Assembly (NCBI GenBank): GCA_965261975.1
Contig: CBDHEC010000008.1
Span: 64,001 to 128,000, forward strand
Source: Alphaproteobacteria bacterium
Lineage (GTDB): Bacteria; Pseudomonadota; Alphaproteobacteria; UBA6615
Length of the DNA stretch: 64,000 bases
Direction: 5' to 3'
Shown in pieces: positions 3,844 to 23,480 of the stretch; the stretch's first letter is position 1; every line of letters begins with the position of its first letter. The notes below the pieces were generated by a model. It ran no database searches, was not told where the DNA came from, and saw only the letters and a program-made list of their open reading frames with translations. Made by a program: the position numbers and the translations under genes.

Positions 3844-4521
3844 TCAGCGGTGAACGCGGATGATAATCCGGCGGTTCTTCGCCTGGCTCTCGGGCAGCGG
3901 GTTGCCCGTGGCATCACGGTTCGGGACCTTCGGCTGGGTCTCGGCAAACGCGACAGCGCGCATCCGATGGACGGGGATATCAACATCGCTGAACAACCGC
4001 ACGACATTGGTCGCGCGCGCTGCGGACAGTTCCCAGTTCGACGCGAAACGGTCATTGGAAATCGGGTTGTCGTCCGTATGACCTTCCACGGCAATCTTGA
4101 ACTTGCTGTAGACCGGTGAACGCAACGCGTCTGCCACGCTCTCGAGGATCGGGCGTGCCTCGGGCCGCAATATCGCCGCGCCCGGTTGATAGAACGCGTT
4201 CGCCGCCAGCTCGAGCACGATACCGCGCTCGAAAGTGTCGATGCGCACCGCATCGGCAACGCCGAGGGAATCGACCAGTGTATCCAGTTCAGCACGAAGT
4301 TGTGCTGCCGGCCGCGTGATCGAGCGCTGGCCGAGGTCGCGTGCAATGCCGGCCTTCACTTGCTCGAAGGTCAGCATATCGACCTTCGAGAAACTCACCA
4401 GCATGACGAAAAACGCCAGCAACAGCGTCATGGCGTCGGCGAAGGTCAGCAGCCATGCGTTGTCACCATCCGACTCGGTCTGACGCAGCGGGCGGTAGAA
4501 GGATTTGCGGGGGCCGAGCAT
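3844..4521 (-). CDS. motB: MotB/PomB-like stator protein (OmpA-type peptidoglycan-binding domain)
   Basis: WLLTFADAMTLLLAFFVML TM segment with the conserved Asp, plus EGHTDD, NWELSAARA and NRRI. Confidence 0.85.
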   Translation of the reverse strand: MLGPRKSFYRPLRQTESDGDNAWLLTFADAMTLLLAFFVMLVSFSKVDMLTFEQVKAGIARDLGQRSITRPAAQLRAELDTLVDSLGVADAVRIDTFERGIVLELAANAFYQPGAAILRPEARPILESVADALRSPVYSKFKIAVEGHTDDNPISNDRFASNWELSAARATNVVRLFSDVDIPVHRMRAVAFAETQPKVPNRDATGNPLPESQAKNRRIIIRVHR

Positions 4522-4529
4522 TTCCTGCC

Positions 4530-5396
4530 TCAGGCAGCCGCGCCGGCAGGTTTTGCCTTGCCCTTGGCGGGCGTGTCGGCGGGCTTGCCACCCGGCCGGC
4601 CTTTGAGTTGCCGGTCGATATCGTAACGGATGGTCGGGTCGAGATAGCTGTTCATATGATCCTGGATGACCCGCGGGCTCGCCTTGTCCGCCAGCATCGA
4701 AAGACCTTCGACGATCATATAGTTGCGGAAGCGGAAAATTTCCTCGCGCTGCTGGAGCTTCGCTGCGGCGGGTGCGAACACCAGGCGGGCAAGCATGATC
4801 CCGTAGAGCGTCGTGACCAGCGCAACGGCCAGTCCGGCACCGATCTGGCCTGGGTCATCGCCCATGCTGTCGAGCATGATAATCAGGCCGATCAGCGTGC
4901 CGACCATCCCGAACGCGGGCGCGGCTGTCGCCATGCTGCGCAACACCTGCGCGCCGACCATGTTTCGCTCATAGGTCGATTCGATCACGTTGCCGAGGAT
5001 CGACTGAACTTTCGCACCGTCATATTCCGAGGTGAGAAGTTCCACGCCGAAACGCAGGAAACCACCGTCCCAGCCGGGAGTCTTCTTGGCTTCGGCATCA
5101 AGGCTGACGATGCCTTCCTTCTGGACCAGGTAGGCCCAGCGAATGACCCGGCCAACCTCGGCATTCAGACGCGAGCGACCCCGGCGGTCGATCCTGAAAG
5201 CGCGCATAATGCCGCGCAGTCCAGCGAACACATAGGTGTACTCGTAGCTGATGAAGGTGGATGCAAGGGTCCCGCCGAGCACGAGGATCGCGCCCGCGCC
5301 ACTCAGGAACACGTAGTAGTTGTTCGTGCTCAGGGCGATCGCCGCAATGAAAAGGCCAAAGCCGACCAGAACGGCGACGAGTGTGTTCAGTGACAT
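4530..5396 (-). CDS. motA: MotA/PomA-like stator protein
   Basis: APAFGMVGTLIGLI and AVALVTTLYG motifs. Directly upstream of motB. Confidence 0.85.
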   Translation of the reverse strand: MSLNTLVAVLVGFGLFIAAIALSTNNYYVFLSGAGAILVLGGTLASTFISYEYTYVFAGLRGIMRAFRIDRRGRSRLNAEVGRVIRWAYLVQKEGIVSLDAEAKKTPGWDGGFLRFGVELLTSEYDGAKVQSILGNVIESTYERNMVGAQVLRSMATAAPAFGMVGTLIGLIIMLDSMGDDPGQIGAGLAVALVTTLYGIMLARLVFAPAAAKLQQREEIFRFRNYMIVEGLSMLADKASPRVIQDHMNSYLDPTIRYDIDRQLKGRPGGKPADTPAKGKAKPAGAAA

Positions 5397-5461
5397 GGAA
5401 ACCTTCCCGCATGGCCGGAAGATCACCTTCCGGCACTGGCGAACAGGTTATGCGCAGCGAA

Positions 5462-6734: not shown

Positions 6735-6891
6735 TTACAAAAGACCGCCATCAATCATGCGCGCCATAGCACGTGCCCGCCGCCCGCGTCGCGCCTCGTT
6801 ACTCGCGCAACGGCCGGATGATGATATAACCCGCCGCAGCGAAATCCACCGGCATCCAGATGCCGGACACGAAACGGGGAGTATTTGTTCC

Positions 6892-7779
6892 ATGACGAAG
6901 CGCATCGGCCTTGTCGGCCTGGGTATTATGGGGTCCGCCATCTCGGGCAATTTTTTGAAATCCGGCTACGCGGTCACGGGGTTCGATCTCGATCCCGCGC
7001 GTTCCGACGAGCTCACGGAAAAAGGCGGCACGGTGGCCGCGTCTCCCGCCGAGGTTGCCCAGGCATCCGACATCGTGATCACGTCACTGCCCACCACGGG
7101 CGCCCTGGATGCGGTGTGCACCGGCGACAACGGAATCGCGTCCGCCGGCAACGCAGATGTCATCATCATGGAATGCTCGACCTTCCCGATCGAGGACAAG
7201 CAGCGCAACCATGACGCGCTCGCGGCCGCGGGCGTGACCATGATCGACGCGCCCCTGTCGGGCACCGGCGCCCAGGCGCGCGAGAAGGATCTCGCGGTCT
7301 ACCTGAGCGGTGATGAGGCCGCCGCCAATATCTGCGCCGAGGTGATCGAAGGCTTCGCGCGCGCGCATTACTATGTCGGCGAATTCGGCAACGGCAGCCG
7401 CATGAAATATGTCGCCAACCATCTGGTCGCGATTCATAACATCGCCGCCGCCGAGGCCATGGTCATGGGCATGAAGGGCGGGCTCGATCCGCAGGTCATC
7501 TACGATGTAATCAGTGACAGTGCGGGCACATCACGCATGTTCGAAGTGCGCGGCCCGATGATGGTCGCCGATGATTATTCCGATGCAACGATGAAGATTT
7601 CGGTCTGGCAGAAGGACATGTCGGTGATCGGCGCGTTTGCGAAATCGCTCGACTGCCCGACCCCGCTGTTCACCACCTGCTCCGACATCTACGTTGCAGG
7701 CATGGCCCAGGGCCGCGCCGAAGAGGACACGGCCGCCGTCTGCGCTATCCTGGGTGAGGCGGCACGCCTGAAAAGATAG
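6892..7779 (+). CDS. NAD(P)-dependent beta-hydroxyacid dehydrogenase (3-hydroxyisobutyrate/tartronate semialdehyde reductase family)
   Basis: IGLVGLGIMG Rossmann motif, DAPLSG, G.GSRMKYVAN and KD motifs. Confidence 0.9.
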   Translation: MTKRIGLVGLGIMGSAISGNFLKSGYAVTGFDLDPARSDELTEKGGTVAASPAEVAQASDIVITSLPTTGALDAVCTGDNGIASAGNADVIIMECSTFPIEDKQRNHDALAAAGVTMIDAPLSGTGAQAREKDLAVYLSGDEAAANICAEVIEGFARAHYYVGEFGNGSRMKYVANHLVAIHNIAAAEAMVMGMKGGLDPQVIYDVISDSAGTSRMFEVRGPMMVADDYSDATMKISVWQKDMSVIGAFAKSLDCPTPLFTTCSDIYVAGMAQGRAEEDTAAVCAILGEAARLKR

Positions 7780-7823: not shown

Positions 7824-8324
7824 CTACATGGGCTCGATAACCCACTCGATGTGGAGGTCGACACCGGCGTCGCGGATCAGGTTGCTGACCGGGCAGCGTT
7901 GCTCGACATTTGCCTTGAGCTTCTCGACCCGCTCCGGGCTCTCATTGGTGCGGAAGACCTTCTTTACCGTGACCTTCTCGAAGTATGGGCGCACACCCGT
8001 AACACCCTTTGCACCGCGAACGTCGATTTCGGCGTCGCAAGTGTAGTTCACATCGCCATACTCGAATTTCATGATATGCGCGACCTGGTGGGTGATCGCC
8101 GCATCGCAGCCACACAGGCCGCCCATCACGGACTCGACCGGGGTCGGCCCCATGTTGGTGCCGCCGCGTTCCGTCGGCTCGTCGATGACGAAGCCCGGCG
8201 TGTCGCGCACGGACACCACGGTGCGCGCGCCGCCTGCTGGATTCTCGCAAACCACGTTGCGGTAGCCGATAACCTTCTTTTTGGGGTCAACGGACGGTTC
8301 GAGAAGTTCACTGTCGCTCATCAT
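7824..8324 (-). CDS. OsmC/Ohr family protein
   Basis: DEP..RGGTN.GPTP.E, LCGC and RCPV Cys motifs. Start uncertain. Confidence 0.85.
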   Translation of the reverse strand: MMSDSELLEPSVDPKKKVIGYRNVVCENPAGGARTVVSVRDTPGFVIDEPTERGGTNMGPTPVESVMGGLCGCDAAITHQVAHIMKFEYGDVNYTCDAEIDVRGAKGVTGVRPYFEKVTVKKVFRTNESPERVEKLKANVEQRCPVSNLIRDAGVDLHIEWVIEPM

Positions 8325-8423
8325 GCTCTCCATTCTGACGTTCGGGCCCACCCGCATCGCGTGCGGACATGGCATAGTATTGACTAAACGTGCTCATACC
8401 ACAGAAGGCGGCGGAACCGACCC

Positions 8424-9224
8424 ATGACCTACACCGAACTCATGCTCGACGTGCACGACAGCGTTGCAACGCTGACACTCAACCGGCCCAAGGCGCGTAA
8501 CGCACTGGGGGGTGCACTGCGCGACGAGTTCGCGGACGCGGTGGTGCAAATCTCGAAACGCGCGGGGAAGGATATCTCCGCCGTCGTCCTGACGGGGGCG
8601 GGCAAGGCCTTCTGTGCCGGCGGCGATTTGCGCGTGCTGCAGGAGATGTCCGCCAAAGGTCCCGATGCCATGCGCGCGCGCATGCACGAATCCCATACCA
8701 CGCTCGAAAGGTGGCTCGACTTGCCGATACCGACCATCGCGGCCGTCAATGGTGCGGCAGCCGGTGCGGGGTTTTCCCTCGCCATCGCCTGCGACTTCGT
8801 GTTTGCCGTGAACAATGCCCGTTTCATCATGTCCTTCGGCCGGATCGGCCTCGTGCCCGACTGGGGGGCCATGTATCTGTTGCCACGCCTCGTCGGCCTG
8901 CAACGCGCCAAGGACCTGGTACTGACCGCGCGCGAACTCAACGCCGGGGACGCGCAGGACCTTGGGCTGGTGCTCGAAACTTTCGATGGGGACCAGTTGC
9001 TGGACCACGCGCAGGCCTTCGCGGCGAAATTCGCCAACGCCTCGCCGGATGCCATCGGGATCGCCAAGCGGGTGATGGGATCGGCCCTGGAAACCGATCG
9101 CACCACCGCGCTGTCCGCCGAGGCCCACGCCCAGGCCGAAGCCAACGCCAGCGACTATCACCGCGACGCGGTAAAGCGCTTCCTGGCCAAGGAACCCGCC
9201 CTGTTCGACTGGGACCGGGAATAA
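8424..9224 (+). CDS. Enoyl-CoA hydratase/isomerase family protein (PaaG-like)
   Basis: LNRP..RNAL, AFCAGGDL, AAVNGAAAGAG and GLVPDWG motifs. Confidence 0.9.
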   Translation: MTYTELMLDVHDSVATLTLNRPKARNALGGALRDEFADAVVQISKRAGKDISAVVLTGAGKAFCAGGDLRVLQEMSAKGPDAMRARMHESHTTLERWLDLPIPTIAAVNGAAAGAGFSLAIACDFVFAVNNARFIMSFGRIGLVPDWGAMYLLPRLVGLQRAKDLVLTARELNAGDAQDLGLVLETFDGDQLLDHAQAFAAKFANASPDAIGIAKRVMGSALETDRTTALSAEAHAQAEANASDYHRDAVKRFLAKEPALFDWDRE

Positions 9225-9233
9225 GAAAGTTCG

Positions 9234-9857
9234 TCAGGTGCCCGCACCAAGACGGCGGGCCACGATGTGAAACACATGCCAGTGTTTCGACTCGCCACGC
9301 GGGGTGGTCGAGTCATCCTCTTCCTCGACAAAATGTTCGACGTCGAAACCCGCGAGCAGGCCCTCGATGTCGGCGCGACTATGGAAGGTCATCCCTTCGC
9401 GGCCCATCCAGCTGTCCCGCTCCCCGTAAAGCTGCCCGGCAAACCGACCGCCGGGACGGAGCGATGATTCAATCCGTCGCCATACCGAGTTGAAATCCGG
9501 TGGCGCACAAAGCGGCAGGGCGAAACTGCTGTTCACAAGGTCGCATGTGGGCCATGCCGCGTCCTCGAAACGGGACACGAGGCCGGCCAGATCGGTGCCT
9601 GGCGGCAGGTCGGGACGCGCTTTCAGGGCGTCGATGGCGTCCGGCTCGGCATCAATGGCCAGCACCCGCCAACCGCGGCGCAGCATCTCGATGGCATCCC
9701 GGCCCGCGCCCGAGCCGAGATCAACGGCAAATCGCGCGCCATCTGCGGGGTCTTCTTCGAACCGGTCGAGGGCGAAAATCAGTGTATTGCGCGGCGGGCG
9801 GCCAATGGTTTTCGCATAATAGGCCGCCCAGTCGCGGTCTTTGGGTGACGTGCTCAC
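9234..9857 (-). CDS. Class I SAM-dependent methyltransferase (TehB/TPMT-like)
   Basis: VDLGSGAGRD and LRPGGRFAG motifs. The start overlaps the stop of the Fe-S subunit gene. Confidence 0.8.
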   Translation of the reverse strand: MSTSPKDRDWAAYYAKTIGRPPRNTLIFALDRFEEDPADGARFAVDLGSGAGRDAIEMLRRGWRVLAIDAEPDAIDALKARPDLPPGTDLAGLVSRFEDAAWPTCDLVNSSFALPLCAPPDFNSVWRRIESSLRPGGRFAGQLYGERDSWMGREGMTFHSRADIEGLLAGFDVEHFVEEEDDSTTPRGESKHWHVFHIVARRLGAGT

Positions 9858-10705
9858 CCGCTCAATCTGATCTCGCCGAGACTGATGCTCTCACCGAGAG
9901 TTACCTCACGCTGCTCGGCACCCAGGCCTTCGGCGGAAATCGAGACGACATAGACGCCGCTCTCCGGAGCCACCCGGTCGATCTTGAAATCCCCATATCC
10001 ATCCGTGGTGGTTTCGGCGACGGTTTTTCCGTCCTGCGTCAGCACGATCCGGGCGCCCTCGACGCAATCTACGATCCCTTCACGTTCGGCCGAAACCGTC
10101 CCGCCAACAAAGCACTCGGCATATCGCCAGAGATTCTTGTAGTGCACACGGGCCTTGGTCTTGAGGTCGGGCCGGAGTGGTTCCAGGCCTTCTTCATCAG
10201 ACACTTTCTGCATGGCACCATCATCGACCTTGAGCGAGCGTAAAGCACCCGTCGGGCAAACATCGACACAGCGCGGCTCGGTCCAGCCGGCGTCGAGCAG
10301 ATGAGCATCGAAGATCCAGTGCTGAGGTATCTCCAGCTCTTCGTTCCAGAAAATCGCGCCATAAGGACACGCGTCGACGATCTGGCGCTGACCCTTGGAT
10401 TTTTCCGGATCGATCACGACGATCCCATCCGGGCGTTTCTTGATGGCGTCATCCTTGGCCGCAGAGATGCACGGCGCGTCGTCGCAGTGCTGACACATGG
10501 TCGGCAGGTAGGCGACGTCGGTCATGGTCCCCTGCCCGCGTTCTCGCCGCTTGATGTCGATCCAGCGATGCCCATGCTTGGGCATCTCGGCTGCATATCC
10601 GGCAAAGCTGTTGCCCACATGCTCGTCCTGCACGGCCAGGGTACAATTGTTGCAGTTCGTGCAGTTTGCGACGTCGACGATCAGGTTCCATTTGGGCTGA
10701 CTCAT
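9854..10705 (-). CDS. Fe-S (beta) subunit of a pyrogallol transhydroxylase-type molybdoenzyme, with a C-terminal beta-sandwich domain
   Basis: CxxCxxC...[16 protein letters not shown] and C..VCPTG. C-terminal [12 protein letters not shown] domain as in BthL-type subunits. Confidence 0.85.
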
Positions 10706-13692
10706 GCCACGTCTCCCACGCTCACCGGTTCAATCCGCTCATACTCGACGACCCCGTCCCAGGGCACGATCTCGACCATGGTCGTGCTGTTGGCCATCGA
10801 GTGGGAATTCTTGATCTGCGATCGCCGGGGCGACAGCAGGTTGAGACAACCACCTCGGTCGACCGAACGTCCGGGCTCGCCCATGGGTTCGTAGACGGCC
10901 GCGGATTCGTAACCATGAGCGACGCCGGGCTGCAAACGCTCGGTCAGGAGTGCGGCGCACAGAACCGCGCCGCGATCGTTGAAAACCTTCACCAGATCAC
11001 CGGTCGAAATGCCACGCGCGGCTGCGTCGGTCGGGTTGAGGCGAAGCACCCAGTAATAATGACCGTCGATCAGCACCCGATGATCTGGGATGTCGTTCAG
11101 GAAACTGTCCTTGCCATCGCCATGGCTGTGGAAGCTGAAACGCGAATGGGGCGTGAGCAGCTGAAGCGGATAGCGATCGCCCAGCCCGGCGACCTTCGGC
11201 CCCTCCCAGGCTGAAGCATATTTCGCGATCGGCGGCCTCTCGGGGTCATCGGGCGCGAAACGTTTCAGGCTCGAACTCTCGAACTCGAACAGGCCCGACT
11301 GGGTTTGCAGCCCTTCGAGGAACTGCTCGGTGTAGTCGCCGGGCAACGGCATCGCTTCGGGAATGTTCTTCTTCTCGCCGTCGGCGAACCATTTATAGGC
11401 CGTCGGTGCACGAAGCTCGGGCGCCTCGGGCGGCACCACGAAATAGCCGCGCTCGATGAACTTCTTCCACGAGATGTGCTGCGGCAGGTCGGACGCATCG
11501 AACATCCGCTTCACCCAGTCGATGTCACGCATGCCCTCCGTATAGTAGGCGCCAAGGCCCAGCCGGCAGGCCAGGCGCGAGAAGATCTCGTAGTCGGATT
11601 TCGATTCCCCGACCGGCTCGATGCATTTGGCCTGGAAGGTGATGATCCGGTTGTTGGTCTGGGAATGGAAATGGGCCCCGTAACCACCGGCATTGGCCCA
11701 CTCGCCGATATCGTAGCGTTCCATGCTCGTACAGGCCGGCAGGATGACATCGGCAAACCGGGTATCGCCCTCCTCCCAGATCGCCTGGCTGACGGCGAAC
11801 TCCAGGTTGGGCGACCGGTACATTTCCACGAAACGGTTGGAATCACTCAACGTGCCCAGGATCGCCGTGCCGTAGCGATAAAGCATGTGCACGGGCGAGT
11901 GACCCTGTTTGGGATAGCTGATCTTGGTGAACTGACCTTCCATCGAAAGCGCGTCCCACAAGAACCCCTCGGCATGTCCGTCGATGATCGCGTCGGGCAG
12001 ACGCAAGCGCGGAATTTTCTGGGTCGAGGGATTCATCGTCGGCAGTTGGGGCATGCGCTGATAGAGCGCGCCGGCCAACGCGGTGTTGTTCAGATCACCC
12101 GAGATGCCGCCTTCGGCATAGCCGGGGAAATAGAAACTGAAATCATGCGGCACGCCGAGCTGAAGATTGCTGACATTGATCCCGGGCTTGCCCAACCCCT
12201 GCATGCCCATGAGGCAGACGAGCATCCGGGTCCACTGGCTGCCCGTCGCGTTTCGCGCGGCACCGCCGAACGCGTTGCCCATGCTGCCGGCGGCCAGGTA
12301 GGTCCGCTTGGAGGCCCATTTGCGCGCCAACGCGCGGACGTCCTTGGCGGGGACACCGGTTTCGGTCTCCTGCCATTCCGGTGTCTTCGCGATTCCGTCT
12401 TCGGTCCCGAGGATGTAGTCGCGCCATGTCTCGAATCCCTTGGTCCGGGTCGCGACATACTCCTTGTCGTAGGTTCCTTCGGTGATCCAGACATGCGCGA
12501 TGGCCAGGGCCAGCGCCGGCGACGTGGTCGGCTTCGGCGCAATCCATTTGCCGCCGAGGAATTGTGCGGTGTCGTTGTAGTAGGGATCGATGTGGACAAT
12601 CTCGATGTCGATATCGCGCAGCCACTGACGCCGGACCGTGCCTTCCTGCCCACCATAGACGCCGCTGGTCGCCTCCGGATTGCTCGACCAGAAGACGATC
12701 ATCTCAGCGTTCTCGAGGCAGTCCTCGATGGTGCCGAAGGGTTCGCCACCGCCGACGCGCAAACTGCCGCCCCAATGGTGCAACGCCCCCCAGTACCAGC
12801 CCTCCCAGCTGTCGGGATTGTGGTGCACGTCGGTCGTGCCGATGGCATTCATGAAGCGCAGCTTGGCGCTGAGGTAGTAACCTATGTTGCCCCAATTGTG
12901 ATGGGAGCCGTTGCTCGACGCGATCGCGCCGGTGCCATGCTCGCGCTTCATGCGCTTGATTTCACCCGCGACAATGTCCAGCGCCTCGTCCCAGCTGATG
13001 CGCTCATAACCGGACACACCCCGATTCTGGATATTGCGCTCCCCATTCGGGTCGAAATCGACACGCTTCATCGGATACTGAATCCGGTTCGGCGCGTTGA
13101 CCATCGCCTTCCAGTTCATCGCATGGGGCGACAGCATACCCTTGCGCGGCGGGGTGAATTCCCTGCCCCGCGCCTTGATCGTCCAGGTCCCGGCGTCTTC
13201 TCCATCGAAGGCAACCGGCGTGGTGCGCAGAATTTCACCGTCGCGGACATAGACAAATAGCGGCCCGCCATTGGTCATGGTGCAGAAGCGCGTGGTCCCG
13301 TCTTTCATCTTGCGCCCGAACTTCCAGCCGGCCGACAGGGCGGCCATCACGGTCTGGGCGAACCACAATGCGTCATCATCGGGACCTTCCAGACGCACCA
13401 GAAAATTCTTCAACGCATCAATCTGTTCCAACTGATCAATCGGCGGCATCAACAACCGGGCCCCGATCTTGGCTGTCTTGAAGACCAGCGATACGGTCGG
13501 CGCGTCGTGCAAACCCGCGCCCGATCGCACGCGACCATCTTCAAAAATTATGTAGCGACCCGATTTGCCGTCCTCGCTGCGGATCTGAACCACGATATTG
13601 CGTTCGCGCAAACGCGCCCGGAAGGCCGGATAGCGCCACCCGGAAACCCGGAACATCCACGACAGACCCCAAAGGATGATCTTGAACAGCAT
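10702..13692 (-). CDS. Mo/W-bis-PGD oxidoreductase large subunit, pyrogallol-phloroglucinol transhydroxylase (AthL)/resorcinol hydroxylase clade, with an N-terminal SCP2-like extension
   Basis: [55 protein letters not shown] and PHSRFSFH motifs. No Tat signal and no N-terminal Fe-S motif. Confidence 0.85.
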
Positions 13693-13722
13693 GCGTCTTC
13701 CCCAACCCCGCGACAGGCAGGC

Positions 13723-14556
13723 CTATTCGGCGGTGTAACCACCATCAATATAAAGCGTGTGACCGGTCACATAATCGGACGCCGGCGACAGAAGATAAAT
13801 CAGTCCGCCCATTAGATCGTCTGTCTCCGACAGCCGGCCGACAGGCACACGTTCGAGCATCGCTTCGCGCGTGGCCTTGCCCGGATCCTCGTCCGAGAAC
13901 ATCCATTCCGACAGCGGTGAGCGAAAAACCGTCGGCCCGATGGCGTTGATATTGGCGTTCTTGCCACCCCATTCACAGGCCAGCGCCCTGACCATGCCGT
14001 CCAGCCCCGCCTTGGATGCGCAGTAACCGGTATAGCCCGTCGGCAGGCCATGGCGGCCGCGCGTGGACGAGACCACGACCACTTTCGACCGTCCGCGTTC
14101 GGTCGGTTGCTTGGCGAATTGTCGGCCTGCCGCCTGACAGGCCAGCCAGTAACCGTCCAGGTTGGCGGACATCACGTTGCGCCAGCTTTCGTAGGATTGT
14201 TCCTCGATATAGCCGACATCATTCATGCCCGTGGCAACAAACATCAGGTCGAGAGCGCCAAAGGCCTCGACCGCGGCGGAAACCATATTCACCGCGTTGG
14301 TCTCGCTGTCCGGCAACCCGATCGCCGTGGCGACCCTGGCGCCGGTGTCGCGCAACTCGTCGGCCTTGGCTTCGACCTTGTCGGGGTTGAGATCCGCGAT
14401 CGTTACATCGCAGCCCATCTGCGCCAGCGCTGTCGCCGCCGCGCCGCCGAAGGAGCCGGTTGCGCCCATCACAAGGGCGGACTTGCCCGAAATATCGAAC
14501 ATGGAAAGTGGTGAATTCTGAGCCAAGGTTAGGTTCCCCGTGTTGGTCGTCATCAT
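13723..14556 (-). CDS. SDR oxidoreductase, phloroglucinol reductase-like
   Basis: GATGSFG, catalytic YxxxK in GYTGYCASK, PTVFRSPLSEWMF and DGGY motifs. Confidence 0.8.
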   Translation of the reverse strand: MMTTNTGNLTLAQNSPLSMFDISGKSALVMGATGSFGGAAATALAQMGCDVTIADLNPDKVEAKADELRDTGARVATAIGLPDSETNAVNMVSAAVEAFGALDLMFVATGMNDVGYIEEQSYESWRNVMSANLDGYWLACQAAGRQFAKQPTERGRSKVVVVSSTRGRHGLPTGYTGYCASKAGLDGMVRALACEWGGKNANINAIGPTVFRSPLSEWMFSDEDPGKATREAMLERVPVGRLSETDDLMGGLIYLLSPASDYVTGHTLYIDGGYTAE

Positions 14557-14593
14557 TTGATGGCGACCAGACTACCCGGTTTTGCGCGCGGGC

Positions 14594-16171
14594 TCACCAG
14601 TGCCCGATCAGCACACCCGATTTACCTTCCTTCACCTTGAATTCGCGCACGAAGGATTCGGGCGACGTGACCCGATACTTCAGCCCGCTCTGCCAGTCGG
14701 CGAGCCGGCGATGCAGCCGGACACGCTCGGCTTCATGGGCGGGGTCGGCACCCAGATCCTGCAGTTCATCGGGGTCGGATTCGAGATCAAACAACTGTGC
14801 GCGGTAGCCTTCATAGGCAATGTACTTCCAGCGCCCCTCGCGCACCATGAAGGTGCGGCACTGGTCCGTCGGCCGTTCCAGCGGGTCACGCACATCGGAA
14901 TAGAAGGCGTAGTCGAGCTCGCTGAAGACCGCGTCACGCCAATCGTCGGGGTCTTCCCCGCGCAACAGCGGCAGGAGCGATCGGCCCTCGACGATATTGT
15001 CGGGAATCTCGAGACCGGCGGCATCGAGGATTGTCGGGACCACATCGATCGCCTCGGCAAACCGGTTGTCGACCGTGCCGCGCGTGCTGTCGGCCGCGCT
15101 GTCGGGGTCGTAGACGATGAGCGGGATGCGCGAAGATTGCTCATGATACATCTCCTTCTCGCCCATCCAGTGATCACCGAGATAGTCACCATGGTCGCTG
15201 GTGAAGACGATCATCGTGTCGTCGAACCGCCCCGCCTTGTCGAGCGCTTCGAACACACGACCTAGATGGCTATCGATCTGCGCGATCAAACCCATATAGG
15301 CCGGGATGACGGTTTCGCGAACTTCATCGCGCTGAAACTCGCGCCCCTCTTCGCGGGCCATGAAGGCCTGGATGACTTCATGATCGGTGTCGCGTTCCTC
15401 GGCAGAGCGCACTGCCGGCAGAATATCGTCGACGCCATACATGTTGTGATAGGGCGACGAGACGATATAGGGCCAGTGAGGCTTGATGTAGCTGAGGTGC
15501 AGACACCAGGGGTCATCCCCCTGCTCGGCGATGAACTCGATGGCCCGATCAGACATATAGGCCGTCTCGCCCATCTCATCGGGCACGACCGCGGGCAGGC
15601 CGCAATTGCGCATGTTCCAGCCGCTCAGAACATTGCCGTCAGGGTCGGTCGCCGAGTTGGCGAAGTCATGCCAGGGATTGTCGCTGTCGAAGCCGTTCGC
15701 GCGCAGATAGTTTGCATAGTCGGATTCGATACGACCCGCGGCGGCCGGGTGGATGCCGTCGTCGCGAACCACATAGTCGAACCCACCTCGCATCAAGCCG
15801 CTCCCGGCTGCGCTGTCCGGCTCGATGCCGAGGCGCGCCATGCCCGTCTTGTCTGCGAAGTGATGGGTCTTGCCCGCCAGTGCGACACGCATATCAGACG
15901 GGCGAAGCAGATCGCCGAGCATCATTTCCCCGACCGGTAACGGTACGAAGTTCCAGAACGCGCCATGACTTGCCGCGTAGCGCCCGGTGTAAAAGGACAT
16001 GCGTGACGGCCCACAAACCGGCGCCTGAACATAGGATTTCGCGAAGCGCACGCCGCGCGCGGCCAACGCATCGATATTGGGCGTTTTCAGGGTCGGATGC
16101 CCTGCGCACGACAGGTAATCAGCGCGCAGCTGATCACACATGATGAATAAGACGTTCCGGACGGTTCCCAT
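14594..16171 (-). CDS. Cytoplasmic formylglycine-type sulfatase/phosphonate monoester hydrolase family protein
   Basis: NVLFIMCDQLR, CGPSR (CxPxR), GKTH, KPHWPY and TSDHGDYLGDH motifs. No signal peptide. Confidence 0.9.
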   Translation of the reverse strand: MGTVRNVLFIMCDQLRADYLSCAGHPTLKTPNIDALAARGVRFAKSYVQAPVCGPSRMSFYTGRYAASHGAFWNFVPLPVGEMMLGDLLRPSDMRVALAGKTHHFADKTGMARLGIEPDSAAGSGLMRGGFDYVVRDDGIHPAAAGRIESDYANYLRANGFDSDNPWHDFANSATDPDGNVLSGWNMRNCGLPAVVPDEMGETAYMSDRAIEFIAEQGDDPWCLHLSYIKPHWPYIVSSPYHNMYGVDDILPAVRSAEERDTDHEVIQAFMAREEGREFQRDEVRETVIPAYMGLIAQIDSHLGRVFEALDKAGRFDDTMIVFTSDHGDYLGDHWMGEKEMYHEQSSRIPLIVYDPDSAADSTRGTVDNRFAEAIDVVPTILDAAGLEIPDNIVEGRSLLPLLRGEDPDDWRDAVFSELDYAFYSDVRDPLERPTDQCRTFMVREGRWKYIAYEGYRAQLFDLESDPDELQDLGADPAHEAERVRLHRRLADWQSGLKYRVTSPESFVREFKVKEGKSGVLIGHW

Positions 16172-16246
16172 CGATACACCTGCAGCTTCCCCACAATATC
16201 GCCGACAACTCTATGCAACCAATGGATGACGACAGCCGACATTTCC

Positions 16247-16272
16247 GGAGGTTTTCGTGCAGTGAAACCTCC
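16247..16272. promoter_or_regulatory. Inverted repeat, putative IclR operator
   Basis: GGAGGTTT-N10-AAACCTCC in the divergent intergenic region between the sulfatase and the regulator. Confidence 0.45.
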
Positions 16273-16318
16273 TGCTAGATTGCGCGCCTGAATTATCCAA
16301 AATCCTCGGCGAGATTAG

Positions 16319-17119
16319 ATGACAGGCCTGCAACCCATACGTGCGATCGAACGCGGCATCTCCGTGATGCGCGCGCTCGAAGAGTTGGGGACCGCCAGCC
16401 TGCATCAATTACACGAGAAAACCGGGCTGCACCGCACGACCCTGCTGCGCATTCTTGTGACGCTCGAGCAACAGGAGCTGGTTCGCCGTGGGCTCGGCGA
16501 CGGCCTGTACCGGAACACCTTCGGTCTGCGCCGCATGACCGGGACACTGGACGAGTTCGACCGGTTGGCCGAGATCGCCGGCCCCGTCCTCGGCCGGCTG
16601 TGCGAAACGGTCAAATGGCCGTCCGACCTGATGGTGCGCAATGGCGATTTCATGGAGATCAAGGAGACCAGCCGGCGCCAGACACCCTTCCTGATGAACC
16701 GCGACGAGATCGGCCATCAGGTCGCATTCGCCGTGACCGCCGTCGGCCGCGCCTATCTGGCATTCTGCCCCGAACACGAACATGACGAGATCGTCGCCGG
16801 CCTCAGCAAATCCTCCCACCCTGCAGACCAGATCGCCCGCACACCGGAGAAGCTGGAGGCCATCCTCGACGAGGTCCGCGCCAACGGCTACGCCACCCGT
16901 GACGAGTTCTATCTCGGCGGAAACTATGGCGAGAACACGTTCTTCGACGACGGCCTCAGCGCGATTTCCGTGCCGCTCCGGGTCGAAGACCAGGTCCTGG
17001 GTTGTGTCAATCTTGTCTGGATGCGGCAGGCGGTGCCGGTGGAAGAATTTGTCGCGAACCATCTGGCGGATTTACGCGCGGCTGCCGACGAGATCGTTAC
17101 CGCCTATATCGAACCCTAG
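16319..17119 (+). CDS. IclR family transcriptional regulator (MhpR-like)
   Basis: N-terminal HTH (TGLHRTTLLRILVTL), plus WPSDL, TAVGRAYLAFC and ISVP motifs. Confidence 0.9.
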   Translation: MTGLQPIRAIERGISVMRALEELGTASLHQLHEKTGLHRTTLLRILVTLEQQELVRRGLGDGLYRNTFGLRRMTGTLDEFDRLAEIAGPVLGRLCETVKWPSDLMVRNGDFMEIKETSRRQTPFLMNRDEIGHQVAFAVTAVGRAYLAFCPEHEHDEIVAGLSKSSHPADQIARTPEKLEAILDEVRANGYATRDEFYLGGNYGENTFFDDGLSAISVPLRVEDQVLGCVNLVWMRQAVPVEEFVANHLADLRAAADEIVTAYIEP

Positions 17120-17130
17120 GGACGCCGGCG

Positions 17131-17937
17131 CTATTGCGCCGCGAACGAAAGCCGCCCACCCGCCGGCAGACCAGCGATCTCCGGTGGCGCGATCCCGGCA
17201 ACCTCGAGAATCATTTTCTTCAACACCGCCTCGGCAAAGCTGATCGTCTCGTCGACGGTCACGACAAAAGCCCCCGTGCCGCCAATGATCTGTTCGCGGA
17301 ACTCCTGCTCCAGCGAGACCGCGCGCGGCGGGCGGGTGCTGCCCGGCCGGCTGATGGCCAGGCCATTGATCGTGATGCCCGTGGCGACCGCATTGCCGCG
17401 CGCCAGGGCCAACGGCATCCCCCCGATATTCCCGGCATCGGCGGAGATATCAATAATCCGCCGCGCGCCGCGATAGGGGTTGGCCTCGATCAGATTCTGG
17501 GAATAGGCAATGGCGTTACTGATCGAGTTAAATCCCCAGGCCTGGCGCGGGGCATCGACCAGCGCGGCGCCGAACGCGGCCGCCGATTCCGGGCCGTCGA
17601 TCACGGTCTAGTCCACAATCGTGTGCTGAGATTCCGCACTGCCCCACTCGACATAGGCAATCACGCTCCGACCATGGATGCCGCCGGTCAATAATTCCAG
17701 GACACGCGGATTGCGCACGGCATCGGCATAACCTTCGCGCTGCAGCGCCAGTTCGGCATCGTCGATGGACCCCGAGCCGTCGGCCGCAAGCACAAGTTCA
17801 AGATCGACCGGTTGCTGCGCAGCAGCCATACCGGCAGCCAAGGTGCCACCGAGGATCACCAGCGCGGCGGCAATTCTGTTTATCTGTTGATAAATGACAC
17901 CTCTCCCCTGAATGGCGCCCGCGTGAAGACCGAGCAT
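17131..17937 (-). pseudogene. DUF1194 (vWA-like) secreted protein interrupted by TAG
   Basis: VDLELVLAADGSGS and IIDISAD..N / GITINGLAI halves lie in the same frame, separated by TAG at 17608-17610 (IVD*TVID) where Trp is expected. Confidence 0.8.
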
Positions 17938-17993
17938 TCCCTACCCACAATAGAAGCTCTATTCTCGATACGCACCCAACAAGGCAGGCTACC

Positions 17994-18539
17994 ATGCGCA
18001 TCTCCGAAATCGACCCCGACACCCTGACCGCCGAACAGAAAGAAATTTATGACAGGATCACCGCCGGCCCTCGTGGCCAGGTGCGCGGCCCCTATCACGC
18101 CTATCTCCTGCATCCCGGCGTGTGTGAAGGGGTCGAGCGGATGGGACACTTCCTGCGCTTTGCAGCGACCTTGCCCGGAAACCTGCGCGAGCTGGCGATC
18201 CTTGTTGTCGGACGCCACTGGAAGGCCGAGTTCGAATGGTTCGCCCATGCCCCCATCGCCATCCGCGAGGGACTGTCCGAAGACATCGTCGAAGCGATCC
18301 GCGCGGGAACGCCCCCCGGCTTCGCAAACGATGACGAGGCGGCTATCTATGGCTTCGTGCGCGCACTTCTCGAGACCGGGCGGGTCGACGACGATGTCTA
18401 TGCCGACATGAAATCGCGCTTCGGCGAAGATGGCATCGTTGAACTCACGGGGATCGTCGGCCACTACACCGGCGTGGCAATGACCCTCAACAGTTTCGAG
18501 ATCGTGCCCCCCGACGGCGAGCGGCCGACCTTCCCCTAG
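17994..18539 (+). CDS. Carboxymuconolactone decarboxylase/AhpD-like family protein
   Basis: GPRG..RGP, LRELAIL, EFEWFAH and VELTGIVGHY motifs. Confidence 0.85.
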   Translation: MRISEIDPDTLTAEQKEIYDRITAGPRGQVRGPYHAYLLHPGVCEGVERMGHFLRFAATLPGNLRELAILVVGRHWKAEFEWFAHAPIAIREGLSEDIVEAIRAGTPPGFANDDEAAIYGFVRALLETGRVDDDVYADMKSRFGEDGIVELTGIVGHYTGVAMTLNSFEIVPPDGERPTFP

Positions 18540-18554
18540 CCGCCGGCAGCGCGC

Positions 18555-19736
18555 CTAGAAAATCTCGAACAGGCCGGCCACGCCCATGCCGCCGCCGACA
18601 CACATGGTGACGACGGCGTTCTTGGCACCGCGACGATGCCCCTCGATGAGCGCATGCCCGGTCATCCGGTTGCCGCTCATGCCATAGGGATGCCCGATCG
18701 AGATCGAACCGCCATCGACATTGTATTTTTCCGGGTCGATGCCCAGCGTGTCTCGGCAATAGAGCGCCTGGACAGCGAACGCTTCGTTCAATTCCCAAAG
18801 GTCGATATCATCGACGTTGAGGCCATTACGCTCCAGCAGGCGCGGTACGGCAAACACCGGCCCGATGCCCATCTCGTCGGGCTCACACCCGGAAACGGCC
18901 AGGCCGAGATAGCGCCCGAGCGGCTCGAGACCGCGCTGCTCGGCGAGCTTCTCATCCATCACCACGCACGCGCTGGCACCATCGGAAAGCTGGCTGGCGT
19001 TTCCCGCAGTGACCGACCCGCCCTCGCGCACGGCGCCGAGGCCGGCCAGGCTCTCCGAGTTCGTCGTTGGCCGGTTGCATTCGTCACGATCAAGGGTCAC
19101 AGCCTTCTCGCTGACCTCGCCGGTCTCCCGGTCCTTCACCATCATGGTTGTCTCGACGGGGACGATTTCATCGTCGAAACGGCCCGCCTGCTGAGCCGCT
19201 GCGGTGCGCATCTGGCTCGACAAGGCATACTCATCCTGGCTCTCGCGGCTGACGTCATATCGATTGGCCACCGTCTCGGCCGTGTCGAGCATGACCATGA
19301 AGATCTCGGGTTTCACATCGCGCACATGAGGGTCCTCGACCCGCATATCGGCCTGATGCGCCGGGTCCAGGGCGCTGATCGCCTCGATGCCTCCGGCCAC
19401 GGCGACCGGCACCTTGTCCATGACCACGCGGTTCGCCGCCGAGGCAATCGACTGCAGGCCCGACGAACAGAAGCGGTTGATCGTGGCCGCGCCTGCGGTC
19501 ACCGGGACACCCGCCCACAACGCCGCATGGCGGGCAAAATTCTGTCCGGTCGCACCCTCGGGGTTGGCACAGCCCATCAGCACGTCTTCAACCATGTCAG
19601 GTTCGATCCCGGCGCGCTCGACCGCGTTCTTGATCGCGATCCCACCAAGTTTCGCCGGCGTGGTGTTGTTGAAAGATCCGCGATACGCCTTCCCGATCGG
19701 GGTCCGGGCGGTGGATACGATAACGGCACTGGTCAT
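18555..19736 (-). CDS. Thiolase (acetyl-CoA C-acyltransferase)
   Basis: NRFCSSG, NEAFA, GHPYG and MCVGGGMG motifs. Confidence 0.95.
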
Positions 19737-19760
19737 TCTCTCTCTCCTACTGGCAACGGC

Positions 19761-20342
19761 CTAGACATGGCCGAAGCGCCAACGCTCGATTGTAAGGCTG
19801 CGGCCCTCGGGACCACGTGACAGAGGCTCATCGGCCAGCAACGCATCCGCGCCCGCCCGATCATCCATATCGACGACATAGAGTGCGCCGGTCACGGTGT
19901 CGCGCTTGTCATTCAGCAGCGCCCCGGCAAAGACGACCCGCTCGCGATACTTCGCGAGGAAGTTCGACACATCCCCCGGCACATGGTCCGACGATCGCGG
20001 GTCGGTGCGCGCGATGACAATGAACTGGGCCCGTCCCTCGGTCTGGGCATAGTCGCGCTGTCGCACATCGGTCCAGGGCTGCAGCGGCTCGATGTCGATA
20101 CGACGGAAAATCTCGGCTGTCGTATAGGGGTCGGTGTCGATGTAGGTCTTCGCGTCGGCGCGGTCGGGAAAATCAATGACCCTGAAACTGCCATTCGCAT
20201 TCGAGCCATCGCCGACCATCATCGGCCCGGAATACCAGGTCTCGGCCTTGAACTTGTCGAGATGGGCCTTATGCGCCTCGAGGGTCGCTTCGCGGGTCGC
20301 GGCCATGTCCGGCTTGGATACACATTTGATCATCCACTCCAT
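19761..20342 (-). CDS. Tandem YciI-domain protein
   Basis: Two repeats of the R...H...L..(S/A)G(P/A)...GS/GA......A.....DP(Y/L) pattern. Confidence 0.75.
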   Translation of the reverse strand: MEWMIKCVSKPDMAATREATLEAHKAHLDKFKAETWYSGPMMVGDGSNANGSFRVIDFPDRADAKTYIDTDPYTTAEIFRRIDIEPLQPWTDVRQRDYAQTEGRAQFIVIARTDPRSSDHVPGDVSNFLAKYRERVVFAGALLNDKRDTVTGALYVVDMDDRAGADALLADEPLSRGPEGRSLTIERWRFGHV

Positions 20343-20354
20343 GGAAACGCCCTC

Positions 20355-21671
20355 TCAATTCGCCTGCGGCACGGCCTCGGCCAGGCGCGGCGCCACGCGT
20401 GAAACATATCGATCGTAGCCCGGCGTGCCGGCCAACAGCATGCCGATGGGCATATCGCCCGCACCCAGCCCGGACGGCATCGAAACGACCGGCCCGCCAA
20501 GCGCGGTCCAGGGCGCGATGAACCGCCTGTCCCCGGTCCATTCAAGCCCTTCCGGCGCCGTCGCCGGTGCCGCCGGCCAGAGCACCAGGTCGGTCGGTTT
20601 GATTGCCCCCATAAACGTCACACGCATGGCGTCGATCTGGCGACGTTCGGCCTGATAGACCTCGTCGTCGATCTCATTGCCGTCGATGACCGACTGCCGC
20701 AAGGCCGCCCCGACCTGACCCTCGGGAAACCCCAGCAAGCCGGCATGCAGGCGCGCCAGTTCATAGACGGTCGTATGTCCCTGCAGTTCGTTGAGGTCCT
20801 CGAGTGAAATCGGCGATGTCATCTCGACAACATCATGGCCCGCATCGCGCAACCGGGCCGCCACATCGTCACGCGCCGCCATGACCTCGTCGCTTGCCTC
20901 GGACAGAAACGGATCGTTCAACACGACCACCCGCACTTCATCCTCGAGACCCGCGTCCGGCCGGCCATGGGGCGGGCGGACGGCGTCATACATGTAGCAG
21001 GCATCTGCGACCGACCAGCCATACAGGCCCGGCGTATCGTAGAACGGCGCCAGCGGCGCGATACCGTATGTGGCCATGCTGCGGGTCGACGGTTTGAAGG
21101 CGGCAATCCCGCAATAGGCCGCTGGCCGGTTTACCGATGCGACCGTCTGGGTGCCGATTGCCGCGGGCACCATGCCGGCGCCGACAGCTGCGCCCGAGCC
21201 ACTGCTCGAGCCGCCGGGGGTATGCCCGATATTGTGCGGATTCCGCGCCGGTGACGGATCGTAGTAAGCAAACTCGGTGGTGTGGGTCTTGCCCAGAATG
21301 ATAGCTCCGGCCGCGCGCAACGCGGCCACGATCTCGGCATCGGCGGAAGCCGGCTGCACATCGGCGCGGGTTCGACTGTTGCATCGGGTCGGCCATCCGG
21401 CGACGTCGCAAATGTCCTTGATGGCCACCGGAACACCGTGCAGCGGCCCCCGCAACATGCCGTCATTGGCTTCCCGATTCATTTCCGCGGCGGTGGCCAG
21501 CGCCCCCGAGGAATCCACGGAAACCCAGGCCTTCACATCTTCATCGACATCCGCGATCCGGTCGAGACAGGCCTGCACCGCATCCGTGGGCGTATAGCTG
21601 CCCGCTCGGATATCTGCGGCAATATCGACAACCCGCCCGGGTGATGCCGCGAAGGAGACCTGTTTTGCCAT
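20355..21671 (-). CDS. Amidase signature family enzyme
   Basis: [30 protein letters not shown] and [12 protein letters not shown] motifs. Confidence 0.9.
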
Positions 21672-21807
21672 GATGGGATACCTTTCAATTCAAACTGCGT
21701 ATCAAGGCTAGCATATCCAAGTCCGGACAGGCAGAATCGCCCTCGGATCATCGTATGCGCAGGTGATGCGCGCACGGCAATGCCCCGGCTGACGTTAGAG
21801 TTTCGAA

Positions 21808-22125
21808 ATGTCGAGAAAAGCGTTCGTTTTGGTCACACTCGGACTGATCATTCTGGCGGCGTGCACGCACCGCCGTGAATGGAGCACACATGATGTTGCG
21901 ATCACATCGGACCCGCCCGGTGCGCGATGCACCTTCGAGCGTGACGGCCTGACCACCCGTCCCAACAAAATTACGCCGTTCGACATCACGCTGACGAATG
22001 TTCCATCCGACATCATCATCCGCTGTTCGCTATATGGCTATCGCCCGGCCGAGACCAGGATTTCCACCCGCTTTCGCGGCACCATCAATTTTGGCTTCGC
22101 GCCGGACCCGACAATTCAGCGCTAA
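21808..22125 (+). CDS. Small hypothetical lipoprotein (PEGA-like), possibly truncated
   Basis: Lipobox ILAAC, then ITSDPPGARC, TP and C...GY pattern. Confidence 0.55.
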   Translation: MSRKAFVLVTLGLIILAACTHRREWSTHDVAITSDPPGARCTFERDGLTTRPNKITPFDITLTNVPSDIIIRCSLYGYRPAETRISTRFRGTINFGFAPDPTIQR

Positions 22126-22138
22126 CGCAGGCGCGCCA

Positions 22139-23398: not shown

Positions 23399-23480
23399 CG
23401 CAAAATTTCTCCAACGGGGCGCTGATCACACGATAGGCGCCTCAACCCCTGCCCACAATCGGATGGGCGCGGACTTTGGT

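Follow-up and report, generated by a model that had tools for sequence, protein, structure and literature searches.

The window analysed here, a 64,000-nucleotide stretch of alphaproteobacterial DNA, belongs to contig C8 of genome G000 (3.03 Mb, 94.6% complete), and its positions 8000–23600 are covered with zero differences by a contig of run X1, which may be where this DNA comes from. It carries a locus of six verified open reading frames (ORFs), five co-oriented on the minus strand and one, an iclR gene, divergent on the plus strand, and the domain assignments of all six were verified with Pfam and NCBIfam (Table 1). The layout agrees with a first-pass annotation of this DNA, which had described five tightly spaced, co-oriented genes opposite an iclR: by annotated ORF ends, neighbouring minus-strand genes either lie 37 or 30 bp apart or, in two cases, overlap by 4 bp, and the gap between the sulfatase gene and that of the short-chain dehydrogenase/reductase (SDR) is 67 bp if the latter begins at TTG 14526. 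The closest named loci belong to metagenome-assembled genomes labelled Alphaproteobacteria or Rhodospirillaceae, with a marine origin in some titles. The locus is a real, lineage-specific catabolic cassette with a core made of the IclR regulator, the SDR and a two-subunit (alpha-beta) molybdenum (Mo) enzyme. Its context supports a connection with phloroglucinol well, and we consider this connection rather probable, unlike the order of the steps, which is not well supported.

Table 1. Features of the locus (positions in the window).
Feature	Position	Strand	Basis
IclR-family regulator (MhpR-like)	16319–17119	+	Pfam HTH_IclR and IclR_C
Probable operator, inverted repeat	16247–16272		8-bp arms, 10-nt spacer; putative IclR binding
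Formylglycine-type arylsulfatase, cytoplasmic	14594–16171	-	CGPSR at residue 53; best PDB 4upi/4upl
Short conserved element ending TAGTCT, 5' of the SDR gene	14569–14583	-	9/9 aligned related loci
SDR, phloroglucinol-reductase family	ORF 13723–14556, probable real extent 13723–14526	-	PDB 5g4k, tree
N-terminal SCP2-fold domain of Mo subunit, residues 1–129	13306–13692	-	AlphaFold, Foldseek
Mo-bisPGD catalytic large subunit, 996 aa	10702–13692	-	AthL/RehL family, PDB 4v4c_A
BthL-like Fe-S subunit	9854–10705	-	BthL alignment
SAM-dependent methyltransferase	9234–9857	-	Resident chromosomal gene by outgroup synteny

The best PDB match of the SDR is 5g4k (E 9e-49), which we take to be a clostridial phloroglucinol reductase, followed by a gluconate 5-dehydrogenase (E 5e-34). 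The protein shares substrate-side motifs with 5g4k, and the segments GYTGYCxSK and PTVFRSxLxEWMF, which the first-pass annotation gave as shared with the clostridial enzyme, are both present in the alignment of the two. In a tree of 129 rows (short and stop-containing loci and ten duplicate loci excluded, some genomes present twice; all trees in this work were made with FastTree and carry local support values only) the SDR is nested (support 99) among the SDRs of phloroglucinol clusters with a ring-opening cyclase, TfD and triacetate lyase (TAL), on a long, fully supported branch, and it is not grouped with the other SDRs of its own genome. Clustering with gluconate 5-dehydrogenases had been named at first pass as a sign against this assignment; the protein groups with phloroglucinol-cluster SDRs, and the gluconate enzyme is the weaker match.

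The cofactor site sets this branch apart, reading ADLN in the SDR and TGRN in 5g4k. Asp at the end of strand beta-2 marks NAD(H) use in SDRs, and it is found in 31/31 loci of the branch (at least 60% identity) versus 0/69 in canonical clusters. According to the accessible part of PMC10470551, clostridial phloroglucinol reductases use NADPH, and the NADPH-binding T-R-(S/N) motif given there is absent from our SDR. From these residues and the tree we predict an NAD(H)-type branch inside the phloroglucinol-reductase family, with phloroglucinol reduction as its activity. Of 577 metagenome loci of the SDR family the best 80 were considered, many of them on short contigs; their neighbours include a cyclase in 52, TfD in 52, a cupin in 47 and TAL in 23, and neither cyclase nor TfD was near any of the eight metagenome loci at least 60% identical to this one. 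A protein-atlas search with the SDR gave generic SDR clusters alone. The alignment of upstream DNA of relatives favours TTG 14526, with a purine-rich site ahead of it, as the probable start of the gene.

The large subunit belongs to the AthL/RehL family with a Ser-ligated molybdenum-bis(pyranopterin guanine dinucleotide) cofactor (Mo-bisPGD), its residues 135–981 aligning to AthL (PDB 4v4c_A) with 946 bits; this, together with the placement of the SDR, supports the polyhydroxybenzene chemistry proposed at first pass. The enzyme was also rightly described as lacking a twin-arginine translocation (Tat) signal, since no RRxF motif was found in its first 60 residues. With AthL numbering transferred through the alignment, His144, Tyr152, Asp174, Ser175, Trp176, Tyr404 and Tyr560 are retained, and Arg153, Trp354 and Cys557 are replaced by Tyr (Tyr273), Phe and Ala (Ala668). 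We take Ser175 to be the Mo ligand and Arg153 and Cys557 to form the pyrogallol/cosubstrate site of AthL; for these roles, and likewise for those presumed for His144, Asp174, Tyr404 and Tyr560, Messerschmidt 2004 is said to be the source, and a literature search on the roles of these residues returned nothing relevant. Across 89 near-full-length family members (matches under 800–850 aligned residues dropped, and stop-containing ones also left out of the residue table), position 153 is Tyr in 87 and Arg in none, and 88 have a residue other than Cys at position 557, leaving one with Cys.

The small subunit aligns with BthL (245 bits) and does not hold the full Cys set for three [4Fe-4S] clusters, as C23, C126 and C129 of BthL are V, W and D here. 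The Trp/Asp pair at 126/129 occurs in 77/77 beta subunits covering the region, while eight Cys are essentially invariant, and by the usual ferredoxin pattern the middle cluster has probably been lost, leaving two [4Fe-4S] clusters. The SCP2 domain of the large subunit has no counterpart in AthL. Residues 1–129 alone gave no Pfam match and 5/47 aligned members weakly match SCP2, but the AlphaFold model of the domain (mean predicted local distance difference test, pLDDT, 76) is matched by Foldseek to UbiJ-SCP2 (TM 0.65, E 3e-5) and has a VIA Z of 11.6 to SCP2; a single-sequence fold of the whole 996-aa subunit (pLDDT 34) was not used. The UbiJ-like fold of the model suggests that a quinone held by this domain may be the electron exit. 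With Arg153 and Cys557 replaced, an incomplete beta-subunit Cys set and the additional SCP2 domain, the transhydroxylase-type activity assumed at first pass is not sustained: judged by these residues, a true transhydroxylase appears unlikely, and the database label "pyrogallol hydroxytransferase" for the large SCP2-fused branch is probably wrong.

This branch of Mo enzymes is broad, with 171 matches in species genomes and 78 loci retained for analysis, and its contexts are varied. Gene sets of the BtdL/BqdL/M24/cupin type lie beside the relatives in L041, L055, L063, L071 and L074, their naming after the resorcinol pathway resting on the accessible part of PMC10084136 and on general background. 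These relatives also have the SCP2 domain, Tyr153 and the beta-subunit W/D, and differ from our enzyme at position 354 (His there, Phe here) and at position 557 (Leu/Thr there, Ala here). G000 carries one AthL-type gene, and a family search in 326 genomes yielded 16 members, all of them lacking Arg153 and any reh/dbh cluster that could be recognised.

Several other arrangements were observed in this branch. In locus L021 (3868–11886) one SCP2-type alpha-beta pair follows another in tandem, with 55% and 71% identity to this enzyme, and the first retains Trp354 and Cys557. In L027–L030, L036, L038, L059, L041 and L075 the SCP2-type pair adjoins a second, FdhF-like Mo enzyme, and a fused LigAB (gallate-dioxygenase-like) gene is present in several of these loci. 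HpdA, the 3-hydroxypyridine dehydrogenase, was considered as a model for the Mo enzyme and rejected, as it is a member of the xanthine-oxidase family according to the part of bioRxiv 10.1101/2020.01.08.898148 available.

The sulfatase resembles the Silicibacter pomeroyi proteins 4UPI and 4UPL, presumably SpAS1 and SpAS2 with arylsulfatase activity, in its CxPxR motif and in a full-length alignment (581 and 571 bits, with 241 for a phosphonate monoester hydrolase and 135 for choline sulfatase), and it scores under the NCBIfam cut-offs of PehA and choline-sulfatase; unlike them, it stands first in a phenol cassette. An orthologue is present in 6/46 genomes of the order (these genomes are kin and several are incomplete, so that counts over them are not independent), all in genus g1 (6 of its 12), where it marks one clade in a concatenated tree. 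Locus L012, inside this clade, retains just the last three sulfatase codons and the end of iclR, and the gene was therefore deleted there; L010 and L015 show a weaker trace. The nearest relatives (about 60% identical) come from outside the lineage, and the lineage's own paralogues (54–59%) group elsewhere, a pattern that fits capture followed by losses. The sulfatase is thus a dispensable add-on, an accessory entry enzyme confined to some members of a single genus.

Sulfatases of this type are common in the order (28/46 genomes). Others, of different subfamilies, lie 4.7 kb (G019) and about 7 kb (G383) from the SDR gene, and a common origin of this sulfatase and the one in G019 was rejected because the two do not group. 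At L239 (9750–12286, also G019) an IclR orthologue (57%) comes after TRAP genes and precedes an unrelated sulfatase, and L056 and L058 combine an IclR-like gene and a Mo pair with another unrelated sulfatase on the opposite strand. As signs of a sulfate link, these scattered cases are weak hints.

One scheme, which follows the first-pass order to the letter, would employ all three enzymes: the sulfatase would free 1,2,3,5-tetrahydroxybenzene from a brown-algal disulfate, the Mo enzyme would dehydroxylate it to phloroglucinol with a quinol as donor, and the SDR would dearomatise the product. The disulfate reportedly exists (the title of Jensen and Ragan 1978), and dehydroxylation of tetrahydroxybenzene is one half-reaction of AthL. 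It seems very improbable, however, since the core lacks the sulfatase in most genomes, the replacement of the Mo enzyme by a monooxygenase described below suggests an oxidation, and the cyclase is absent downstream.

The best NCBIfam model for the regulator is PRK09834 (183 bits, under the cut-off of 269). In L010, L013 and L016 iclR lies directly before the SDR gene, and it is an ancestral part of the cassette which was lost or decayed in several relatives. The inverted repeat between iclR and the sulfatase gene, reported at first pass, was located; by itself it is only mildly unusual, as a repeat of such kind arises in 53/2000 dinucleotide shuffles of the 147-bp intergenic region. Because its 15-bp palindromic core (16253–16267) is preserved ahead of the cassette in relatives, whether these have the sulfatase or lack it, the repeat is likely an operator, with IclR as the putative binder. 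A pattern of the core, derived from the matching sequences themselves, matches 17/238 loci at one site each, several of these loci being one and the same genome. The element ending TAGTCT is a possible -10 region of an internal promoter, and a sigma-70 consensus scan of 8300–17300 gave 0 sites versus 2.5 expected.

The methyltransferase is an old resident gene, since in outgroups it faces an enoyl-CoA hydratase gene in the absence of the cassette: this site was cassette-free in 5/5 outgroup genomes tested (G012, G019, G022, G023 and G380), and in four of the five DUF1194, or a small gene after it, lies just upstream of the methyltransferase. The cassette was inserted between DUF1194 and the methyltransferase, which is retained where the Mo genes are gone and was rejected as a pathway member. 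With a resident gene at one end and a dispensable one at the other, the five-gene pathway proposed at first pass is not supported.

In the sister genus g11 the full order is IclR, SDR, SRPBCC, HsaA-like flavin monooxygenase, MoL and MoS, of which L011 shows the part from the SDR onward; the SRPBCC and monooxygenase genes inside the cassette are seen at L216 (6893–8502), L217 and L011. Partial losses in this genus leave Mo only, SRPBCC plus Mo, or the monooxygenase only (G377, G378), and the monooxygenase is in the cassette of 3/4 g11 genomes without the Mo enzyme and 1/7 with it. A plasmid search with the monooxygenase had a best match of 41% and gave no named resorcinol hydroxylase, and literature on GraA gave nothing. 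In G382 a canonical cyclase–cupin–PGR (phloroglucinol reductase)–TfD cluster replaces SDR-Mo behind the IclR orthologue (L221, G382:C1:469000-476300). In G380 (L218) such a cluster lies at a different site and is followed by an amidohydrolase-family gene. We propose that genes lying apart in relatives were assembled into the cassette in an ancestor common to three related genera. The synteny expected at first pass is found within one lineage and not beyond it: none of 61 more distant Mo loci has this sulfatase or the methyltransferase.

Over the order, the Asp-type SDR is present in 30/46 genomes and the Mo enzyme in 28/46; 25 have both, and the two are adjacent in 20, from three genera. A ring-opening cyclase occurs in 2/46 genomes (G380 and G382), both with a canonical reductase and without the Asp-type SDR and Mo enzyme, and none was found in the 30 genomes with the Asp-type SDR. 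To hypothesize, the locus could also be a mosaic at an insertion-prone site, in which the SDR, Mo enzyme and sulfatase act on different compounds with only a regulator or niche in common; the Mo enzyme would then hydroxylate another hydroxy-aromatic or an N-heteroaromatic, and the sulfatase would be a passenger. We regard this as unlikely, with serious arguments in its favour: G019, a complete genome, has its orthologues of the SDR, Mo enzyme, IclR, methyltransferase and monooxygenase at widely separated places; SCP2-type Mo enzymes occur in many unrelated contexts, among them sets of acyl-CoA synthetase, VOC and fumarylacetoacetate-hydrolase genes on plasmids of cultured Ensifer, Salipiger and Burkholderia strains (L230–L232; Mo pairs 53–56% identical); the Mo clade's nearest relatives outside it (L018–L024) have no common neighbours; and the methyltransferase is a case of tight spacing without a functional tie. 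Against it stand the adjacency of SDR and Mo genes in three genera with a conserved operator, the canonical phloroglucinol cluster at the same site in G382, and the fact that the 13 genomes lacking both Asp-type SDR and Mo enzyme include the two that gained a canonical cluster.

In other genera the SDR lies beside a decarboxylase and an NMT1-type ABC transporter, often accompanied by genes for a pirin and for an alpha/beta hydrolase; the Mo genes are elsewhere. The partners exist unlinked in G000: a decarboxylase and an NMT1-type transporter on C55, a TAL on C39 and a BtdL/BqdL-like set on C29. The first pass had noted neither these partners nor the SCP2 domain, the NAD-type cofactor site and the altered Fe-S ligands. 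The C55 gene (G000:C55:9896-10501, L212:3897-4502), near an FrsA-like hydrolase and a pirin-like gene besides the transporter, encodes a bacterial homologue of AGDC1/PPP2, fungal decarboxylases that act on gallate/protocatechuate and need no cofactor, and it retains most of their catalytic residues. A SnoaL-like neighbour of the SDR, considered as a dihydrophloroglucinol dehydratase, was rejected in favour of this same family, as it matches AGDC1/PPP2 with the carboxylate-binding residues. The C39 protein (G000:C39:6050-6982, L214) passes NCBIfam NF053538 (527 bits, cut-off 430); it is a 3,5-dioxohexanoate:acetyl-CoA acetone transferase, i.e., a triacetate lyase, 80–98% identical across 35/46 genomes, with no reductase linked to it here.

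The presence of the decarboxylase and TAL favours a dispersed Pelobacter-like route from gallate to triacetate cleavage. The C55 enzyme would decarboxylate gallate to pyrogallol, the Mo enzyme would convert this to phloroglucinol by hydroxylation followed by dehydroxylation, a bound quinone substituting for the tetrahydroxybenzene cosubstrate, the SDR would reduce phloroglucinol, an unrelated hydrolase would open the ring and the C39 lyase would cleave triacetate; the sulfatase would act on gallate or pyrogallol sulfates. The C55 protein retains W35, R39, D40, T60, W61, H86, Y150 and Q192 of AGDC1, and six genomes from other genera (G012, G391, G019, G022, G371 and G383) have its orthologue next to the SDR or within about 3.5 kb of it; His144, Asp174, Ser175, Tyr404 and Tyr560 are kept in the Mo enzyme, and SCP2-type Mo genes adjoin canonical phloroglucinol clusters in L078 and L153. 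On the other side, E88 of AGDC1 is not retained (the residue roles, with an inactive E88 mutant, are given in the accessible part of PMC7862292), Arg153 and Cys557 are substituted, no cyclase orthologue was found (matches of at most 30%), a transhydroxylase is not replaceable by a flavin monooxygenase, and G012 (100% complete) and G391 have the decarboxylase, SDR and lyase with no Mo enzyme. We therefore consider this route unlikely, though a close competitor.

Our best reading, which we hold only tentatively, is that phloroglucinol is reduced and dehydrated to resorcinol, which the Mo enzyme then hydroxylates. It is favoured because the cyclase is excluded, a monooxygenase stands in place of the Mo enzyme in some relatives, and the latter is built like a hydroxylase; the swap fits the hydroxylation step. 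Where present, the sulfatase would act on an imported sulfate ester to liberate the phenol; one such ester, phloroglucinol sulfate, is annotated in brown seaweeds in the accessible part of PMC12432060. The SDR would convert phloroglucinol to dihydrophloroglucinol with NADH in place of NADPH. Without a cyclase, the reduced product would dehydrate to resorcinol, spontaneously or, in the sister genus, with the help of SRPBCC. The Mo enzyme would hydroxylate the m-dihydroxybenzene with water-derived oxygen, as RehLS does, and pass the electrons to the SCP2-held quinone rather than to a phenolic cosubstrate. Hydroxyhydroquinone would go to the BtdL/BqdL-like set on C29, and the methyltransferase would have no part in the route.

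That set (G000:C29:16891-24467, L213) comprises genes for an Old-yellow-enzyme, an M24 peptidase, a BtdL-like dehydrogenase, a CobW-like protein, a BqdL-like fused E1 alpha-beta and a glyoxalase; it resembles the hydroxyhydroquinone pathway, has no adjoining Mo enzyme, occurs in 7/25 related genomes, and matches L055 with 75% (BqdL-like) and 87% (M24).

Several results weigh against the reduction–dehydration–hydroxylation reading. TAL (at least 80% identity) is present in 35/46 genomes, including 30/30 with the SDR, and the AGDC1-like decarboxylase in 33/46, including 28/30, both of which suit the Pelobacter-like route better. The SDR occurs without the Mo enzyme in five genomes, and the Mo enzyme without the SDR in three; a BqdL-like gene was found in 7/25 genomes tested versus 18/25 for the Mo enzyme; the C29 BtdL-like gene is just 34–38% identical to those of the model clusters; and our Mo enzyme falls in its own clade of 22 rows, apart from the BtdL/BqdL-linked clades. 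No SRPBCC gene was found in this genome, G008, G010 or G019, so that the dehydration would have to be spontaneous here; an abiotic dehydration of dihydrophloroglucinol is presumed, and a literature search gave no support for it.

Compared with the pyrogallol–phloroglucinol transhydroxylase AthL/BthL (PgtL/PgtS of Pelobacter acidigallici, PDB 4V4C), the whole catalytic body and the beta subunit align, the Ser ligand is kept and the enzyme is cytoplasmic with no Tat signal; the differences are the SCP2 domain, the changes at 153, 354 and 557, the three missing beta Cys and an aerobic-type alphaproteobacterial host. The resorcinol hydroxylase RehLS of Aromatoleum anaerobium and the 3,5-dihydroxybenzoate hydroxylase DbhLS of Thauera aromatica AR-1, both of the hydroxyhydroquinone pathway, belong to the same RhL/PgtL family, for which 285 metagenomic hits are given in the accessible part of PMC10100899. 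The likeness to them runs through the BtdL/BqdL/M24-adjacent members (SCP2, Tyr153, reduced Cys set) and the C29 set rather than through direct comparison; our enzyme is in its own clade, with a reductase and a sulfatase under IclR, whereas btd/bqd stand under sigma-54 regulators in the accessible part of PMC10084136, and no btd/bqd genes were found in the same cluster as the Mo enzyme here, those of G000 being on C29. With the PGR-DPGC-TfD-TAL pathway of Clostridium scatologenes, as far as PMC10470551 could be accessed, the SDR shares its family and the genome a TAL; it differs in the Asp-type NAD site in place of the NADPH motif, in the lack of a cyclase in the 30 SDR genomes and in its neighbours, as no clustering of the SDR with dihydrophloroglucinol cyclohydrolase (DPGC), TfD and TAL was seen here. 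A further parallel, SAR116 with pgthAB and PGR homologues (bioRxiv 10.64898/2026.07.17.739263), likewise concerns alphaproteobacteria of marine origin that have the two enzyme types, with no dihydrophloroglucinol cyclohydrolase detected; in its accessible part this preprint reports presence, proposes detoxification and has no mention of a sulfatase. In open literature, with most subscription papers outside coverage, no account of a sulfatase-linked version or of an NAD-type phloroglucinol reductase branch was found.

Elsewhere in the window, a DUF1194 gene (17131–17937, minus strand) is split by an in-frame TAG at 17608–17610, with intact relatives of about 255 aa. In one ORF (22139–23398, minus strand) the N-terminus is MscS-like and the C-terminus is that of an ABC-ATPase, which probably marks the junction of a deletion or rearrangement; a contig of run X1 runs across it, and coverage of a related strain in run X2 ends at about 22.6 kb. 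A pair at 3844–5426 (minus strand), MotA/MotB-like by sequence appearance, is syntenic in close relatives. The 3-hydroxyisobutyrate-dehydrogenase-like gene at 6757–7779 was considered as BtdL and rejected as a resident neighbour with only 21–30% identity to cluster-linked BtdL.

The polyphenol chemistry itself is known and the locus is not a new kind of system; its sulfate link is confined to part of one genus. The genes probably help an uncultured alphaproteobacterium to process phloroglucinol-like phenols through a reshaped reductase and an O2-independent Mo enzyme. Little is known of how bacteria in seawater consume the monomers of phlorotannins and the sulfates of these, and genome surveys detect homologues of the transhydroxylase and the reductase with no ring-opening enzyme alongside; the locus offers a small testable set for this problem, namely a branch of NAD-type reductases that does not occur together with the cyclase, an SCP2-fused Mo branch and natural gene swaps that narrow the reactions. 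A wider reading, to which we give little credence at present, is a dedicated brown-algal sulfated-phenol route (phloroglucinol sulfate, tetrahydroxybenzene disulfate) in free-living marine alphaproteobacteria that bypasses the known ring-opening cyclase. If true, this route would join desulfation to a dearomatisation that a new reductase branch carries out with NADH and to an O2-independent Mo (de)hydroxylase, an enzyme that would have gained its quinone-carrying SCP2 domain in exchange for the cosubstrate site and one Fe-S cluster.

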